Shown one piece after another: positions 2,935 through 9,734 of a stretch of 12,590 bases of DNA. Each line of letters begins with the position of its first letter. Position 1 is the first letter of the stretch. The position numbers and the translations under genes were made by a program. The stretch spans positions 1 to 12,590 of the forward strand of contig WJMJ01000145.1 of NCBI GenBank assembly GCA_014728035.1. Reading direction: 5' to 3'. The notes beneath the pieces are model-generated. The model saw only the letters and a program-made list of their open reading frames with translations, had not been told where the DNA came from and ran no database searches. Source of the stretch: Promethearchaeota archaeon. GTDB lineage: Archaea > Asgardarchaeota > Thorarchaeia > Thorarchaeales > Thorarchaeaceae.

Positions 2935-3321
2935 TTAGGTAAGGTAGGTTACTATCTCATATCTTCCAGATTCATCCATCTTGTGCCACACTAGGTATAA
3001 ATTTGAATTATCGTATGGTGCATAATATGGCTCATTCATATCTGGTCGATATTTGGCGCTCGATTCTGGTGCTATGTCTATTGATACACGACCATCATCA
3101 CCAGCCAGAAATCCTGCAAATTTTGTGTTGTCTTCTTGTAATGGAATGATATCATATTTGTTCAGAACCGCAAATATGTTGTCTAGAGGAATTATTTTAA
3201 AATAAATACCCGATACCAATTCCGCCAATTCATGATTAACTGTCTGTCGCATTTGATTGCGCAGGGTCTTACGATCTTCATTTATAACATTCAGCGCGTC
3301 ATTTAATTTATTCTTAAACAT
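2935..3321 (-). CDS. Hypothetical phage protein
   Basis: 128-aa ORF in series with its neighbours. No clear SD; GCAAAAATA motif just upstream. Confidence 0.8.
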   Translation of the reverse strand: MFKNKLNDALNVINEDRKTLRNQMRQTVNHELAELVSGIYFKIIPLDNIFAVLNKYDIIPLQEDNTKFAGFLAGDDGRVSIDIAPESSAKYRPDMNEPYYAPYDNSNLYLVWHKMDESGRYEIVTYLT

Positions 3322-3370
3322 GCATTATTTTTGCATTCTGTGGTTATCTTGAAGATGATTTAATACAAAT

Positions 3371-3402
3371 GGGGGAGGAGATCTACCCTGACCCCCTCCC
3401 CC
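3371..3402 (-). terminator. GC-rich 13-bp hairpin, probable terminator or 3' end of the ncRNA transcript
   Basis: Minus strand GGGGGAGGGGGUC-AGGGUA-GAUCUCCUCCCCC. Its two G-U pairs only work on the minus strand. Followed by AUUUGUAUU, a weak U-tract. Confidence 0.65.
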
Positions 3403-3436
3403 TAGTATAAGTTTTCAAGACTTAACTAATTCGGGC

Positions 3437-3625
3437 GGCTCATACTCATCATATAACGAATTGCCTCATTTTGCTAATGGCGCTCTACCACTGAGCTACG
3501 CGTCCTCGTATCCCTCTGCTTTGTCGGGCTTGGGACCGTCATCGGCAGCATTATTGGGGGACGCGATGGGATTCGAACCCATGACCACCAATTCATTGGA
3601 CAATTCGCATATCAAATAAAGAGCC
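3437..3625 (-). ncRNA. Circularly permuted tRNA-like RNA with no anticodon loop
   Basis: The 3' half comes first: UGGUC, AUGGG-UUCGAAU-CCCAU T-arm (3582-3566), CGCGUCC-C-CCA (3565-3555). The 5' half follows: GGACGCG-UA-GCUC-AGUGGUA-GAGC-G (3505-3481). Perfect 7-bp acceptor stem. CCAUU/AUUGG forms the anticodon stem, extended outward by CGAAUUG/CAAUUCG and GGCUC/GAGCC. Confidence 0.85.
3511..3554 (-). ncRNA. Twister self-cleaving ribozyme core; predicted cleavage between U3553 and A3552
   Basis: UAA UGCU GCC GAUG ACGG UCCCAAGC CCGA CAA AGCA GAGGG. P2 UGCU/AGCA, P4 CGG/CCG, pseudoknots GC/GC and CCC/GGG. Conserved U^A cleavage site and catalytic-G position (3516). Aligns closely with the Oryza sativa twister as I recall it. 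Confidence 0.85.
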
Positions 3626-3627
3626 TA

Positions 3628-3729
3628 CTGACACTAACTGGACAATAATCTGACACTGAATCTGCGGTGATAGTAAATGTTATCACGACAGATACGATGA
3701 TACTGATACTGCGGCTGACACTGTCCAGT
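3628..3729 (-). repeat. Structured short-repeat domain (CAGURUCAG units) between the 254-aa gene and the tRNA-like domain
   Basis: CAGTGTCAG at 3723-3715 and 3658-3650, CAGTATCAG at 3711-3703, CAGTATCAT at 3705-3697, TAGTGTCAG at 3636-3628. Closing stem ACUGGACA/UGUCCAGU plus an inner hairpin at 3693-3660. Confidence 0.7.
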
Positions 3730-3736
3730 AAAAATT

Positions 3737-4501
3737 TTATTTGCCAAGAATGTAGTTGGCAATCTCCTTTCCTATAGTCACATTCAAGATTTCCTGCTCG
3801 TTTGCACGCTGACGAGCTTTCTTTACTGCGCGTTGCAATTTATCAACCCTGCTGATAATAGAAGATTTGTCAGCAGGAGACAAAACACCAGACCAATGAG
3901 TCTCAATGAATTTTCCAATCGGCGCATCTTCATTCCATTTTTCAATTTGTGCTGGATGTTTATCAGTAGCATCATATAAGACCTTGTGCTGAACCACCTT
4001 CTTGGTGCGTCGTTTTTCAACAGGATTTGCCGTCTTATACACAGTACCCGTCGTGGCCTTGACATGCGTTTCGTCTTTTTCCCATTTAATCCCAGGCTGT
4101 AATGTTGGAATATTATCCAACACTTGTCTGATATCTTTCAACCTGGTTTCAAGGCCAAGAAGGAAAGTGGCCGGAACATCCTTAGCTATAGTCACCCCAT
4201 CCACAACAAGGTCGGTCCTTGCTTCTTGGTTGGTTCTCTCTTTCTGAATGAGTACATCCAGATATGGTATGATGGATTCACTAAATATATAATCCAATTT
4301 TTCATCCACCGTCGTTACCATTTCCACTTCTTCATCTGCCAACACGTCTGGATCATTCTCATCAAATGGCTCATAATGACGCACCTGAGCCATAAAATGG
4401 TTTGGCTTGTTCTTGAATGTGGCGGTTGCTTCGTTTAGAATTTTCTGGTAGGCACCCCGGTGGTCACCCTCTACTGCGATAATTTCGTGCAATTTACCCA
4501 T
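3737..4501 (-). CDS. Hypothetical protein (MGKLHEIIAVE...), largely helical/coiled-coil, upstream of the ncRNA
   Basis: 254-aa ORF with a strong AAGGAG RBS. I recall similar proteins in bacteria and phages but cannot assign a function. Confidence 0.9.
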   Translation of the reverse strand: MGKLHEIIAVEGDHRGAYQKILNEATATFKNKPNHFMAQVRHYEPFDENDPDVLADEEVEMVTTVDEKLDYIFSESIIPYLDVLIQKERTNQEARTDLVVDGVTIAKDVPATFLLGLETRLKDIRQVLDNIPTLQPGIKWEKDETHVKATTGTVYKTANPVEKRRTKKVVQHKVLYDATDKHPAQIEKWNEDAPIGKFIETHWSGVLSPADKSSIISRVDKLQRAVKKARQRANEQEILNVTIGKEIANYILGK

Positions 4502-4550
4502 TATAATCTCCTTTTGGTTGAATAGAGATATATAATGGTGCAGTAAATTA

Positions 4551-4997
4551 TTAACCGAAATATCTTCTTAGTAATTCTTTAGATTCATTATCATCTACCA
4601 AGTCTACAAAAAATTCAAGCGGAATCTCCATATAATTATCATCCATGCTTGACAGCAATTCATGAGCTACCTCTTTTATGATATCATAATGATCTGGGTC
4701 AATGTTAATAAAATCTTTGAGAATCTTATCCTTACTGTGTACTGTGGTGGTTGGCATATTTAGATCGGTCGTCTCTACAGACAGCGCAACTGACACTGAC
4801 ACTTTACCATTATTGCCTTCCATAGTTATCATATATAGGAATGGTCCTTCATAAGTGCTTTTATCACTCTCAGCATATCTACTTATGGATACCTTTACAT
4901 CAAAGATTTCATCCTGTTCGAGGAAGATTCTATCTCCTACTTCTAGGAGATATTCTTGATCATCTAGGATTACCTTGGATTCTTTAGTTACGATCAT
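4551..4997 (-). CDS. LExGDxI cassette fused to an unrelated ~117-aa body (148 aa)
   Basis: Start reassigned to 4997 (ATGA overlap with the upstream stop; matches the paralogue starts). Confidence 0.85.
   Translation of the reverse strand: MIVTKESKVILDDQEYLLEVGDRIFLEQDEIFDVKVSISRYAESDKSTYEGPFLYMITMEGNNGKVSVSVALSVETTDLNMPTTTVHSKDKILKDFINIDPDHYDIIKEVAHELLSSMDDNYMEIPLEFFVDLVDDNESKELLRRYFG
4906..4997 (-). repeat. Dispersed N-terminal cassette, copy C (identity ends after ...FLEQDEI)
   Basis: Two mismatches versus the copy at 5523..5614, then abrupt divergence. Confidence 0.95.
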
Positions 4998-5614
4998 AGG
5001 AATTTCCTCTTGTACGCACGCCACCATTTTGGACTTTGCTTGATTGTATCCTCAGCCTCAGGCCATCTACCATTAATTACATAACAAGCATAATAATAAG
5101 CTAATCGTGGATCTTGCTTGATGGTGTCCTCGGCCTCAGGCCACCTACCCTTGATCACATTACGAGCATATGCATTTGCCCATTCTGGATCTTGTTTAAT
5201 TATATCCTCTACCTCAGGCCACCTACCCTTGATCACATCACGAGCATACATATAAGACCATTTTGGATCTTGCTTGATTGTGTTCTCACCCTCAGGCCAT
5301 CTACCCTTAATCACATTAAAAGCATAATAATAAGACCAATATGGATCTTGCTTGATTGCCTCCTCACCCTCAGGCCATCTGCCCTTGATTACGTCATCGG
5401 CATATTCATAAGCCCATTTTGGATTTTGCTTGATAACATTAAGTACTCTATTATCATCAGGGTGCTCTTTGATGTATTCTATTGGATCACCGAATATATC
5501 CTCCTCATCCTCGAATTCTGGAATTTCATCCTGTTCGAGGAAAATCCTATCTCCTACTTCTAGGAGATATTCTTGATCATCTAGGATTACCTTGGATTCT
5601 TTAGTTACGATCAT
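4994..5614 (-). CDS. LExGDxI-module protein with 26-aa RWPE/KQDP helical repeats (206 aa), paralogue of 1429..2049
   Basis: Start reassigned to 5614 (ATGA overlap with the endonuclease stop). Five RWPE units. Confidence 0.9.
   Translation of the reverse strand: MIVTKESKVILDDQEYLLEVGDRIFLEQDEIPEFEDEEDIFGDPIEYIKEHPDDNRVLNVIKQNPKWAYEYADDVIKGRWPEGEEAIKQDPYWSYYYAFNVIKGRWPEGENTIKQDPKWSYMYARDVIKGRWPEVEDIIKQDPEWANAYARNVIKGRWPEAEDTIKQDPRLAYYYACYVINGRWPEAEDTIKQSPKWWRAYKRKFL
4997..5434 (-). repeat. Intragenic 78-nt (26-aa) tandem repeats
   Basis: ctcaggcca recurs every 78 nt (e.g. 5057 and 5135). Confidence 0.9.
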
Positions 5615-7485
5615 CTTGTCCATATAAATCTCAAATTACCAGCATCCCACAATCTTCTATACCCATTTAGAAACATGTTTTCAGCTTCCGTAACATGCTC
5701 ATCAAAATGTTCAAGTTTATCTTTGAGCTTATGCTTCTGAAATTGTATTCTTGAATAAACTCTATTTTGCTTCACGTAACAATAATTTGGTCTTGTGATA
5801 CCATCAAGATCAAACCCCAAATGATAATATAAATCGCCATTGCTATATCTTCTATTGGCATATGATAATACCAATTCTGGATTGCACCTTTTGATGAAGT
5901 GCTTAAATAATCTACTGGCACCACCAATTACAGTTTTTCCAATTTTATTAGCAAATCGAGTAATTTCCCAACCATATTTATTGTGTTTATTAAATGACAT
6001 CACCGCCAATAACTCATCATTATAATATAAACCGCATATAAAGTGTGAATATTTATAACCTTGCAGATGATTAGATGCCATGAATTTCCTATACGTGCCT
6101 ATACCCACTTCCATTATATCACATTTTCTAGCATAAATTCTATCCGTCATGTTAAGTTTGCTTTTTATAATTGATTTTACAACATGTTGGTTGTTTCTCC
6201 ATTCATCCTCTGATATTTGTATCAATCTAATTCCTAATTCATTGCATCTATCTAATTTAAACACGTGTCGTTGTCTTTCTTGTGTGGTTTCTACATGATC
6301 ATAAGAATGCCAGTATATACCATTCACTTCAATGGCCAGGTTGCAATCCAATACCAAAATATCTAGTTCATATGGATAAATGGCGGATCTATCATTCATT
6401 TTAGATCTAGATAATTCATTTACAAATTCATAGACTTCATTCTGCAAGTGACCACCAGAACACAGTTGACATCCATTTCTATTTAGAATATGATATCGCG
6501 GCACCTGCCAAAACATACCATGGGTTGGGCACTTCATATTGGCAAGTGAATCATAAGATTCATAGATCATCTCACCATAATCATATGTATCTCCATGAAT
6601 CTCCTTTGCTTTCGCTACAAATTCCTCTCTGGTAATCCGTATGTCGTGTACTTTTAGTCCAAATCTTTTAACTGCACTAGATACTGCTTTCTTCCCACAT
6701 CCAATTTCTGATGCAATATCTCTGGTAGATCTGCCAGATTTAATATATTCATTTTTTAGCCAATCAACATCATTTAATTTATCAAATGCATTATCACCTA
6801 TAACTGATTTCAAATTTGTTGGTTTATCAAATTGGGGTGCATGTGGTTTTAAACCAATCTTCTTCATTCTGTTTTTTATAACATGCACTCCTTGCCCAAG
6901 CACTGATGCGATATCAGATAAACACATACCAGATTCATGTAGCTCTTTTATTTGATCAATGTCTACACTGTGCTTATTATGTGGTATTACATTTTGACTT
7001 GGCTTCCCAGATGGTTTCAATCCATTGGAGCGTAATAATCTGCGCACGACATGGCCACCTACATTATACATTCTAGCAATATCTGTTGTTGACATGCCAT
7101 TATGATAATGCTTTATAACATCATCTACATGATCTGATAATTTCGATTTTGGATACTTTGAAGATCTGTTCTTCGTGAATCTTGGTTTTCTATTTGGATA
7201 CTTATCCCGCAAAATAGTGCTGACTAGTGAATATTCAACCCCAAGAGAATGAGCAATATCGCTTGGTGCATGTCCATTCTCATACATGTCTGTGATTTGT
7301 TCTTTATATCTTACCTTTAGACTGTTTTTGGAAGGTTTTCTGCGAGGATTAATATCGTGTAGTTTAAGAATTCTTGATATTACTTTATGAGTTACTTCAT
7401 ATTTTGCAGCAATATCTGATACATTATAATTAGAATTATATAATTCGATTATTTTATCGTGTTCATTGTGTATGTCCATGACCAC
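5611..7485 (-). CDS. Hef-like homing endonuclease: tandem HTH repeats, CPxHG...GCxxC Zn finger, Vsr/DUF559-like nuclease, IYARKC-initiated GNAT-like C-terminal domain
   Basis: Motifs CPTHGMFWQ..HIL..NGCQLC, YELDI...LAIEVNGIYWHS, IYARKC, WEITRFA, SYANRRYSNG.LY..LGF and WDAGN. Confidence 0.8.
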   Translation of the reverse strand: MVMDIHNEHDKIIELYNSNYNVSDIAAKYEVTHKVISRILKLHDINPRRKPSKNSLKVRYKEQITDMYENGHAPSDIAHSLGVEYSLVSTILRDKYPNRKPRFTKNRSSKYPKSKLSDHVDDVIKHYHNGMSTTDIARMYNVGGHVVRRLLRSNGLKPSGKPSQNVIPHNKHSVDIDQIKELHESGMCLSDIASVLGQGVHVIKNRMKKIGLKPHAPQFDKPTNLKSVIGDNAFDKLNDVDWLKNEYIKSGRSTRDIASEIGCGKKAVSSAVKRFGLKVHDIRITREEFVAKAKEIHGDTYDYGEMIYESYDSLANMKCPTHGMFWQVPRYHILNRNGCQLCSGGHLQNEVYEFVNELSRSKMNDRSAIYPYELDILVLDCNLAIEVNGIYWHSYDHVETTQERQRHVFKLDRCNELGIRLIQISEDEWRNNQHVVKSIIKSKLNMTDRIYARKCDIMEVGIGTYRKFMASNHLQGYKYSHFICGLYYNDELLAVMSFNKHNKYGWEITRFANKIGKTVIGGASRLFKHFIKRCNPELVLSYANRRYSNGDLYYHLGFDLDGITRPNYCYVKQNRVYSRIQFQKHKLKDKLEHFDEHVTEAENMFLNGYRRLWDAGNLRFIWTR

Positions 7486-8177: not shown

Positions 8178-9734
8178 TTATTTTTGATTTCTATGATAAA
8201 TATATTTCAACTTTTCTTTTCCCATCACTTTAATTAAACCAAAGGTAGCCACATAAGCTGCCTCAGTAATTTTTGATTTCTTGGCGTGATAATATATAGA
8301 CTTCTTGTGGGTATAATATCCATCAGCATCAATATACCAATAGTCTGGTTTAACCTCTCCCATAAACTCAAAATTACTTGCCTTATAAATTGTACCACGA
8401 TGATTGAAAGTTGTATCTGAGTAAGCTATTATGTCATGGTATCGCCGTGGTAATCGTTTTATGCTCTGTGATATTAACCAACTAGCAAAATTCTTTTTTT
8501 GATATCTTGGATGAATACATAATCTCGATAATTCAGTGGTATGATAATAATCATGTGGCAGATTTTGCCTTATTAAAGGCGAAAAGACAACACTACCAAT
8601 AAGCACATCACCAAGGTACGCAGCAAATACGTTGCCACAACGACCGGCGCTTCCAATATAATGGTGTGAACTTATAAATATATCAACTTCGGATTTACTT
8701 ACCTTTTTTATTATCACGTCCTTGAAACAAAAATCATATATATCATCATTGATATTACACCAATATTTTATTAAATTGACAATTTTACCAACACTTTTGA
8801 ATTCATGCTCCCATATATATTTTATCTCACATTCTGGATGATTTTTTGCTATATAATCAAATTTCAATCTATCATTCTGTACAGCAGTGGGCAATGAATG
8901 CCAATAAACACCATTGCATTCAATTAGGACTATTTTATGTCCTAAGGGTATGGCACAATCAAAAGAAAACGGTCCATAATGGCATTGTTGATCATCATCC
9001 CTGTCTTCATACTCTCTATAATATGTAATCCCAAGATTATCTAATATCATATATAACATAAGCTGTAATTTTGATACTCTGGAACGATTCACATGGATTT
9101 CTGCCATCTTTTTTCTGTATTCTGGATCACCCCATCTGCGCTTCGCTACAATAGACATTTTATGCTTAAATTCTTCACCAAAGTGAATATCAGTATTGAT
9201 TCCATGCTTATTTAATAATCTACCTATAGTTGAATATGAGCACCCAAAATATTTACCACATTCTTCCATAGTATGTGATTGATAATATTCAATCAATTCT
9301 TTAATATTGATGTGATCACGTAGATCATCAATATTATTGATATTGTTTCTTCGTAAGAATGATCTAATAGAAGCTACGCCAACACCACATTTATCAGCAC
9401 ATTCTTTGAGAGTGTGATCTTTCAAATATTCTTTAATGAATTCAAGGTCATGATTATCAGCATAATGAATACCAGTTTCATATCCTGCTTTTCTCAATCT
9501 TGTGCCAAGAACATGGGGAGAGCAACCAAATTTATGTGTACATTCCTCTAATGTGTGATCTTGATAATAGTGATATAATTCATCAATGTCAATGTGCTTC
9601 TTATTGGGCGGATCTTTTGGTGGTTTAACCAATCCAAGATTTTTGGCTTTATATCGAACTTGATCAACTGTCATATTAAATTCAATAGCTGTTTCTTTCA
9701 ATGTATGTGTCAAATAGTGTTGATCAAAATTCAT
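8178..9734 (-). CDS. HTH-repeat protein with a Vsr/DUF559-like nuclease and a Mom-like (GNAT) C-terminal domain
   Basis: About four HTxxECxxxFGxS repeats. FSFDCAI...LIECNGVYWH. ELSRLC...NFASWLIS...IAYSD...HRGTIYKASNF matches the Mom-family motif. Confidence 0.8.
   Translation of the reverse strand: MNFDQHYLTHTLKETAIEFNMTVDQVRYKAKNLGLVKPPKDPPNKKHIDIDELYHYYQDHTLEECTHKFGCSPHVLGTRLRKAGYETGIHYADNHDLEFIKEYLKDHTLKECADKCGVGVASIRSFLRRNNINNIDDLRDHINIKELIEYYQSHTMEECGKYFGCSYSTIGRLLNKHGINTDIHFGEEFKHKMSIVAKRRWGDPEYRKKMAEIHVNRSRVSKLQLMLYMILDNLGITYYREYEDRDDDQQCHYGPFSFDCAIPLGHKIVLIECNGVYWHSLPTAVQNDRLKFDYIAKNHPECEIKYIWEHEFKSVGKIVNLIKYWCNINDDIYDFCFKDVIIKKVSKSEVDIFISSHHYIGSAGRCGNVFAAYLGDVLIGSVVFSPLIRQNLPHDYYHTTELSRLCIHPRYQKKNFASWLISQSIKRLPRRYHDIIAYSDTTFNHRGTIYKASNFEFMGEVKPDYWYIDADGYYTHKKSIYYHAKKSKITEAAYVATFGLIKVMGKEKLKYIYHRNQK

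Follow-up and report, generated by a model that had tools for sequence, protein, structure and literature searches.

A permuted tRNA-like RNA with a twister ribozyme core in its acceptor loop, encoded downstream of a DUF7873 gene

Why should the core of a self-cleaving ribozyme lie in the acceptor loop of an RNA that resembles a transfer RNA (tRNA) in permuted order? The question is raised by contig WJMJ01000145.1 of the Promethearchaeota archaeon assembly GCA_014728035.1, which we analysed over its complete length of 12,590 bp (hereafter the window). On its minus strand the window carries a gene for a 254-amino-acid (aa) protein of the family DUF7873 and, past the stop codon in the same direction, a non-coding RNA of ~360 nucleotides (nt), the tRNA-like core of which encloses a twister-like sequence (Table 1). 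A preliminary description of this DNA, made from its letters and a list of its open reading frames (ORFs), had taken the pair for a candidate undescribed ribonucleoprotein (RNP) system. Here we report that the window RNA genuinely belongs to a widespread DUF7873-linked family of YrlA-type tRNA mimics, borne mostly by phages, and that the twister is a new element of this family, known from a single observation.

The RNA family downstream of DUF7873 genes

For comparison with the window, 97 homologous loci were taken from genomes in IMG/VR and GTDB, along with a few long contigs; 88 of the loci were non-duplicate. A motif scan found a T loop followed by a D arm, that is, the permuted order, 100-250 nt past almost every DUF7873 gene, and an explicit search recovered a 7-bp acceptor stem at a fixed register in 82 of 98 sequences (the 97 loci and the window; 69 non-redundant). 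With a covariance model of the core (R1), built from 49 loci with short acceptor loops, a match of at least 50 bits was obtained downstream of the gene and on the same strand in 79 of the 88 DUF7873 loci, 30 of the 79 being outside the seed; the remaining nine mostly offered too little downstream DNA, carried a large insertion or scored 38-48 bits. The window RNA scores 66.2 bits with R1 (E = 3e-28) and has, besides the core, the 7-bp acceptor stem, the NCCA end, the same-strand downstream position and the hexamer-repeat 5' domain of the family, as well as the motif AUUAGC, which many relatives likewise carry past the anticodon-like stem. The preliminary description had tentatively mentioned pairings of a gene with tRNA halves in other genomes and had raised the question of whether permuted halves and repeats accompany homologues of the protein; the pairing turned out to be general, and the repeats were found family-wide over 57 loci, as described below.

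The helices of the core are supported by covariation. In the seed alignment 91% of the paired cells were filled by pairs and 19 of the 21 base pairs showed changes on both sides, with far lower values in shuffled alignments and in slid registers. Among 34 matches outside the seed, the corresponding figures were 94% and 20 of 21, and the acceptor helix was 99.6% paired. The less biased witnesses are the T arm and the anticodon-like stem, as the seed loci were picked by acceptor and D-arm pairing and the non-seed alignment was fitted to R1. In 25 of 66 relatives we also noticed a second tRNA-like element, in normal order and at a fixed distance of about 75-95 nt past the 5' acceptor strand (e.g., L001:3993-4067, L016, L029 and L061). 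Its anticodons are often unusual or unreadable (AUU, AUG, AAC, UUA, 8-nt loops), and the element is probably a second head of the same RNA, not a working tRNA.

In the window itself, the structure of the RNA is almost certainly real. An unconstrained fold of the minus strand at 3365-3736 yields the complete architecture at -122.8 kcal/mol (z = -3.2), and the parts listed in the preliminary description, namely a stem domain with AGURUC repeats, a permuted tRNA-like fold with a long duplex, a twister core in the acceptor loop and a 13-bp terminal hairpin, were all recovered where it had placed them. It had noted no terminator past the stop codon at 3737, and our scan of the minus strand from there to 3402 found no terminator-like site either; to judge from its sequence, the terminal hairpin beyond is the probable intrinsic terminator and the 3' end of the RNA. 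ARAGORN called neither a tRNA nor a transfer-messenger RNA (tmRNA) in the window, the tRNA model RF00005 gave no match at E <= 10 in 3300-3800, and nothing in the window reached an Rfam gathering threshold. The possibility that the tRNA-like core is a prophage attachment-site relic of a tRNA gene was rejected in view of the family-wide covariation.

The region between the stop codon and the T arm has a common layout in 57 loci. It opens with runs of the hexamer N-A-R-N-N-U, often CAGCUU, UAGCGU or CAGUGU; a hairpin that varies between loci comes next, then one or two further hexamers, UUG, a C-rich strand and, last, YAGYUU-YAG. In the window, the UAGUGU-CAG unit and the UUGUCC preceding it represent the corresponding family motif UUGNCCC-NN-YAGYUU-YAG. 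Over the 57 loci, identity at a lag of 6 nt was 0.318 against 0.265 in shuffled sequences (z = 9.3), with z = 5.3 at a lag of 12 nt, and the window alone gave 0.40 and 0.38 at the two lags (z = 3.5 against shuffles). The periodicity is not a coding one, because lags 3 and 9 gave no signal over these loci, whereas a coding control shows the 3-nt period. Read in the first 60 nt past the stop codon, the hexamer varies by clade, being GAGACU in L048, L052, L055, L063, L067 and L071, CAACUU in L030 and AAACUU in L027, L066 and L087, with A2 and U6 kept throughout. The C-rich strand pairs with a G-rich strand directly past the stop codon, and the two appear to change jointly across loci (AGGACU/AGUCCU, GGGU/ACCC, AGGGG/CCCCU; ACUGGACA/UGUCCAGU in the window), but this covariation of the closing helix is only suggestive, since each helix is too short for significance alone. 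Two candidate promoters of the RNA were considered here. A sigma-70-like site at 3762-3734 on the minus strand (TTGCCA, 17 nt, TAAAAT; 10 of 12 positions) runs over the stop codon to a point 5 nt ahead of the first stem of the RNA; it was discounted, as such sites are no commoner here than in shuffles. The conserved UUGACCC motif was rejected as a -35 box, as no -10 element lies at a workable spacing.

The protein encoded upstream belongs to DUF7873 (PF25283), with residues 1-252 aligned to profile positions 1-242 of 244 (E = 3.5e-75; 253.3 bits, cut-off 27 bits), and its ATG is preceded, at a distance of 7 nt, by a Shine-Dalgarno sequence (AAGGAG, 4513-4508). More than 1100 homologues were present in the protein collection searched; two DUF7873 clusters of the Atlas are 78% viral and 97% bacterial, respectively, the second most commonly from Actinomycetota. 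PHROGs and PADLOC hold no family for the protein, and literature searches for DUF7873 returned nothing relevant; the DUF7873-linked RNA family is unpublished as far as could be searched. The family scan bore out the earlier impression that the protein has no recognisable TROVE or vWA features. The structure prediction and fold search that had been proposed for it gave a confident AlphaFold model, in which four long helices accompany a sheet that includes a long beta hairpin (mean predicted local distance difference test score, pLDDT, 90.7), and no match outside its own family. Foldseek found nothing in the PDB at E <= 0.001, its top rows (Cas7) having a template-modelling score of about 0.1; the best VIA-align hit (Z = 8.4) fell on helical bundles and was not meaningful; the Atlas fold search returned only DUF7873 itself; and a profile search of PDB sequences gave 0 matches, while the look-alikes proposed by a language model were all unnamed. 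As modelled, DUF7873 has no convincing structural relative in the PDB or the Atlas other than its own members.

DUF7873 is predicted to form a homodimer. The prediction scored 0.79 against 0.00 for the best control, a mark attained by 20 of 30 proteins solved as one-chain pairs and by 1 of 23 solved as single chains, and the runs agreed in at least 97% of contacts with a partner pLDDT of at least 90. Many invariant residues fall within the predicted interface, and may be conserved for assembly, not for catalysis.

The twister core and the opening of the acceptor loop

The only match to the twister-P1 model (RF03160) at E <= 0.01 in the 4.3-Mb genome lies inside the 49-nt acceptor loop of the window RNA (3508-3557; 34.7 bits; E = 7e-6 in a scan of 501 nt and 1.5e-5 in the genome scan; gathering score 67.2). 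The type-P1 twister ribozyme was reportedly described by Roth and colleagues in 2014. The alignment keeps every conserved core position of that type, comprising the UAA junction, P2 (UGCU/AGCA, 3550-3547 with 3519-3516), GCC, P4 (CGG/CCG, 3538-3536 with 3527-3525) with its UCCCAAGC loop, and GAGGG. A base-by-base reading indicates that both pseudoknots are possible, T1 between CCC 3534-3532 and GGG 3514-3512 and T2 between GC 3546-3545 and GC 3529-3528. The optional P3 is absent, as in the rice twister. Unlike a canonical type-P1 ribozyme, however, the motif has no P1 at the cleavage site: the P1 columns are unpaired, and the acceptor stem closes the motif instead, across a 5/6-nt internal loop. 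The score falls well under the gathering score because P1 and P3 are missing, and P1 is dispensable for cleavage (PMC5408937). On its sequence, we regard the acceptor-loop insert as a true twister with high confidence. The predicted scissile bond, between U3553 and A3552, lies 2 nt past the encoded CCA, and cleavage at this bond is reasonably probable; the 5' product would end in ...C-CCA-AU with a 2',3'-cyclic phosphate.

What probably happens at this position in the relatives, which have no ribozyme, can be read from the conserved bases around the loop. Positions 74-76 are CCA in 58 of 67 non-redundant relatives, the base before the 5' acceptor strand (-1) is U in 39 and the first acceptor base (+1) is G in 44 of the same 67, and the loop itself measures 3 to 143 nt, with 76% A+U when short. 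To judge from these features, the acceptor loop looks like a substrate of ribonuclease P (RNase P) with an encoded CCA. The only YrlA RNA studied that has a 7-bp acceptor stem is the one of Mycobacterium smegmatis; RNase P cuts its closing loop at this very position, it bears CCA in vivo, and its two halves persist and stay together (PMC4201824). In the window the loop starts with AUAA and then runs into the twister, and the loops of several relatives start with AUAAAA. Taken together, the loop starts and the processing pattern suggest that the ribozyme occupies the site at which the RNAs of the relatives are most likely opened. Literature searches on YrlA with twister, and on twister with permuted or tRNA-like phage RNAs, returned nothing relevant, and gave no description of a twister embedded, like this one, in a structured RNA at a tRNA-type processing site.

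Insertions of other kinds occur in the same loop, and twister-like cores outside it. The acceptor-loop insertion of L030 (L030:2405-2600) is a structured one of 143 nt, with the 7-bp acceptor strands intact on both sides, and it matched nothing in Rfam at E <= 0.05. On phage-like metagenome contigs (L109:1311-1400, minus strand; L110:1085-1155), a short gap between small ORFs holds a stand-alone twister-like core (UGACGGUCCCAAGCCCG ... ACACAGAGGGG), similar to the P3-less twister of the window and with no tRNA-like context.

We consider the following explanation of the locus to have about an even chance of being right as a whole: the twister and RNase P open the acceptor loop, and the product is a two-piece, CCA-ended tRNA mimic that works with DUF7873. 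The twister would cut itself at the U3553/A3552 bond, leaving the CCA-AU end with its cyclic phosphate; this cut alone would be the equivalent of 3' trimming elsewhere. RNase P would then cut 5' of G3505 and remove the body of the twister. The two halves would be held together by the acceptor stem, the tRNA elbow and the ~35-bp duplex, giving a mimic in two pieces with a free acceptor end. The predicted DUF7873 homodimer would be the likeliest partner, and the simplest place for it to bind would be the 6-nt-periodic repeats of the 5' domain. The particle may show the surface of a tRNA acceptor and elbow to those host or defence factors by which tRNA ends are recognised. Our case for cleavage, for processing by RNase P, for binding by the protein and for function is argued from sequence and analogy. 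For the binding of this RNA by DUF7873 in particular, the whole case consists of the conserved adjacency, the iterated repeats and the predicted homodimer, and we put its likelihood somewhat short of even; any particular cellular role of the module, including the tRNA decoy and the RNA-repair or quality-control module put forward in the preliminary description, is much less likely than that.

Table 1. Positions of the RNA elements and of the protein gene in the window
Feature	Positions	Strand	Basis or remark
DUF7873 protein gene, 254 aa	3737..4501	minus	Pfam PF25283
5' stem domain	3637..3729	minus	Minimum free energy (MFE) fold; encloses hexamer repeats and inner hairpin
8-bp closing helix of 5' domain	3729-3722 with 3644-3637	minus	MFE fold
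CAGURU hexamer repeats	3723-3700 and 3658-3645	minus	Lag-6 and lag-12 periodicity
Inner hairpin of 5' domain	3693-3660	minus	
Extra repeat unit UAGUGU-CAG	3621..3636	minus	Family alignment consensus
Long imperfect duplex, ~35 bp	3625-3588 with 3480-3437	minus	MFE fold
Permuted tRNA-like core, including variable loop	3463..3604	minus	Model R1, Rfam YrlA
Anticodon-stem equivalent (5' strand AUUGG)	3592-3588 with 3480-3476	minus	Conserved with covariation in relatives
T arm	3582-3566	minus	
Acceptor stem, 7 of 7 pairs	3565-3559 (3' strand) with 3505-3499 (5' strand)	minus	
C, then encoded CCA	3558, then 3557-3555	minus	
Acceptor loop of 49 nt with twister core	3506..3554	minus	
D arm	3496-3482	minus	
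Family motif AUUAGC	3478-3473	minus	Within 3' strand 3437..3480; family comparison
Small 3' hairpin, 9 pairs, one bulge	3403..3428	minus	MFE and centroid folds
Terminal G+C-rich hairpin, 13 bp, 9 G-C	3371..3402	minus	Followed by U-rich AUUUGUAUUA; terminator scan; probable terminator

Known RNAs and competing explanations

The closest known relative of the RNA is YrlA. The Rfam model of this RNA (RF02553) aligns with the core end-to-end, with an insertion of 54 nt, at 43.1 bits (E = 2.4e-8; gathering score 69), and the relatives score 29-49 bits. As the preliminary description had recognised, the window RNA has the YrlA-type permuted order of T arm, acceptor stem and D arm, an assignment supported by the Rfam alignment, the fold and the covariation alike; its transcript ends, too, leave the anticodon side through a long helix. 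It differs from YrlA in the DUF7873 neighbour, a 5' repeat domain of its own, AUUAGC, a CCA that is encoded rather than added, and the ribozyme in the loop. The earlier remark that it does not sit beside Ro60/Rsr also holds, as the neighbour is DUF7873 and no TROVE match was found across the 97.9%-complete genome bin; TROVE was likewise absent from four of five jumbo-phage records with DUF7873 (three at least 92% complete). The Ro-binding helix of YrlA carries the motif GNCGAAN0-1G (Chen et al. 2014, PMC4201824), which did not occur on the minus strand at 3361-3740 of the window. On score, Ro60 neighbour and Ro motif, the window RNA is not YrlA proper.

The fifth jumbo-phage record (G001, 358 kb) has both kinds of association. 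Its DUF7873-linked RNA scores 84 bits, and 200 kb away lies a 560-aa TROVE gene followed by four to five tandem R1-type RNAs (L107:742-3405; G001 326700-330700; 37-78 bits with R1), all of which combine an acceptor stem of 7 bp with NCCA and a short, U-rich loop. An orphan R1-type mimic of 63 bits in phage record G002 (L108:993-1095), a phage with DUF7873 at another place, has neither DUF7873 nor TROVE among the ORFs of at least 80 aa within about 1 kb. To judge from these copies, the RNA head is of a class to which Ro60-linked phage Y RNAs belong as well, and the DUF7873 form is set apart by its neighbour gene and its flanking domains. The word "undescribed", as applied to the system at the outset, stands in so far as the RNA is absent from Rfam at threshold and from searchable papers, but not in so far as the same RNA class follows a Ro60 gene in one phage.

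Three further systems resemble parts of the locus. In Cyanidioschyzon merolae, permuted tRNA genes have their 3' half ahead of the 5' half, and such genes mature to normal tRNAs with anticodon loops via a circular intermediate. The window RNA shares with them this order and the joining of the acceptor ends by a short linker, which in the alga is removed by tRNA end-processing enzymes, but it has a long open duplex in place of the anticodon arm and no anticodon. Two-piece permuted tmRNA genes of alpha-proteobacteria and cyanobacteria place the CCA end before the 5' acceptor strand, as the window does; the middle is excised and the pieces are held by long helices. The window RNA differs from them in having a complete D arm, no alanine identity pair, no tag frame and no ARAGORN call. 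Finally, TRAP and HutP are oligomeric proteins whose target is single-stranded RNA with (G/U)AG triplets at intervals of 5-7 nt, and the NAG-containing hexamers, situated in predicted single-stranded segments beside the gene for a putatively self-associating protein, would be analogous to their targets; DUF7873 has no similarity to either in sequence or fold, and is predicted to form no more than a dimer.

Several observations weigh against the explanation by a ribozyme-opened, DUF7873-bound mimic. The twister is a single case: its core was found in none of the 88 related loci, in a survey that leaves out the locus of the closest DUF7873 homologue (63% identity), and no Rfam ribozyme was found at E <= 0.05 in the 18 relatives with the largest acceptor-loop insertions. 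Patterns combining a tRNA mimic with a twister, all of which do match the window itself, gave 3 chance matches in coding DNA or none on IMG/VR (three patterns), and on JGI metagenomes (one pattern) only a stand-alone intergenic twister, in two copies, accompanied by a chance TAGCTCAG. The twister score, as said, is about half the gathering threshold. The window has A, not the U usual in the family, at RNase P position -1, and an AU end with a cyclic phosphate would require trimming before the CCA is exposed. It lacks the second tRNA-like head, two hairpins standing in its place. The RNA class, moreover, is not exclusive to DUF7873, given the copies adjacent to Ro60 in G001 and alone in G002, and the case for binding of the RNA by DUF7873 is one of adjacency.

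Among the competing explanations, one would make the RNA a cis-acting element for the processing or stability of the DUF7873 messenger RNA (mRNA) and not a partner of the protein, where the tRNA-like fold recruits RNase P, here along with the twister, and provides the message with a structured, CCA-ended 3' end. Such an element would separate the mRNA from downstream tRNA-like genes, into which many loci indeed run on, and the protein could act back on its own message through the repeats; the lack of a terminator between stop codon and RNA and the invariable position of the RNA 3' of the gene on the same strand agree with this. Nevertheless, a cutting signal needs far less than an RNA of ~360 nt with a conserved 5' domain, duplex, AUUAGC and encoded CCA, and RNAs of this class are also found in tandem behind Ro60, and singly, where there is no mRNA to finish, so that we consider the cis element unlikely. 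It is improbable, to a slightly greater degree, that the inserted twister has no activity or is neutral, having been left over from an intergenic phage ribozyme that landed in a tolerant loop, with the loop staying closed or being opened by RNase P alone, as in relatives. Its single occurrence, the sub-threshold score and missing canonical P1, the unrelated insertions of 30-143 nt tolerated in the same loop of relatives and the similar stand-alone twisters between small genes on L109 and L110 would fit a relic. A decaying relic, however, is expected to lose some of the core positions, P2, P4 and pseudoknot partners, all of which are intact here, P1 is not needed for activity (PMC5408937), and the predicted cut falls 2 nt past the CCA, the one place where the relatives appear to be processed.

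Readings that assign the RNA to a known class fare worse. That it is an ordinary YrlA Y RNA working with a Ro60/Rsr encoded elsewhere in the phage or host, its adjacency to DUF7873 being incidental, seems very improbable. YrlA is the best Rfam match, tandem R1-type RNAs come directly after the TROVE gene of G001, and the 12.6-kb contig is only part of a phage; yet the bin and four of the five DUF7873 phage records hold no TROVE, the Ro-binding motif is missing, the score lies 26 bits under gathering, and 79 of 88 loci are too many for the adjacency to DUF7873 to be incidental. We give hardly any credence to the idea that the RNA resembles a two-piece tmRNA, or is aminoacylated in some other way, and either enters the ribosome or serves as an amino acid donor. 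Permuted two-piece tmRNA genes do have this order of T arm, acceptor 3' strand, CCA, spacer and acceptor 5' strand, both the acceptor stem of 7 bp and the encoded CCA are conserved, and there are weak matches to permuted tmRNA (RF04321; 16.3 bits, threshold 47) and beta tmRNA (14 bits), with 21-35 bits in relatives. Against this, ARAGORN calls no tmRNA, the third acceptor pair is A-U and not the G-U of alanine identity (G3-U70), the D arm is that of a full tRNA, unlike in tmRNA, and inspection of the window RNA revealed no tag reading frame or pseudoknot series.

Genomic setting and significance

The window belongs to a genome bin of 4.3 Mb in 173 contigs, with 8.5% contamination at the completeness given above, and reads as a fragment of a phage. 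All its long ORFs are on the minus strand, and most of the other proteins scanned were assigned to no family. The next ORF past the DUF7873 gene and the RNA starts with ATG at 3321. Two large proteins (5611-7485 and 8178-9734, minus strand) carry multiple helix-turn-helix units at the N terminus and bodies resembling homing or HNH endonucleases (PHROG 559 and 3339), the second of them with a C-terminal Mom-like/GNAT domain (PF25680, E = 1.9e-18). BLASTN of 3300-4600 against GenBank phages gave no match, and no protein neighbour of DUF7873 was common to the loci on four long contigs.

Although twister ribozymes rank among the self-cleaving RNAs that have been studied best, they have no confirmed biological function according to the abstract of a 2021 paper (PMC8501958). 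If the explanation favoured here is true, the window RNA would offer a rare, testable natural job for them. It is attractive, if speculative and on balance unlikely, to imagine the twister as a built-in 3'-end maturase which, with DUF7873 dimers seated on the hexamers, makes a Ro60-independent phage RNP that engages or decoys factors acting on acceptor ends; candidates would be processing enzymes, translation factors and defence toxins that modify or cut the CCA end. The position of the ribozyme can be interpreted from about 80 relatives free of it, as marking the loop that has to be opened for a CCA end. If selection placed the ribozyme there, the open, two-piece form would probably be the active form of the whole family. 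More broadly, the module represents a second, Ro60-independent use of a tRNA mimic of the Y-RNA type; many large phages have it, together with a protein of no known fold, for which the 6-nt-periodic repeats provide a specific candidate binding site.

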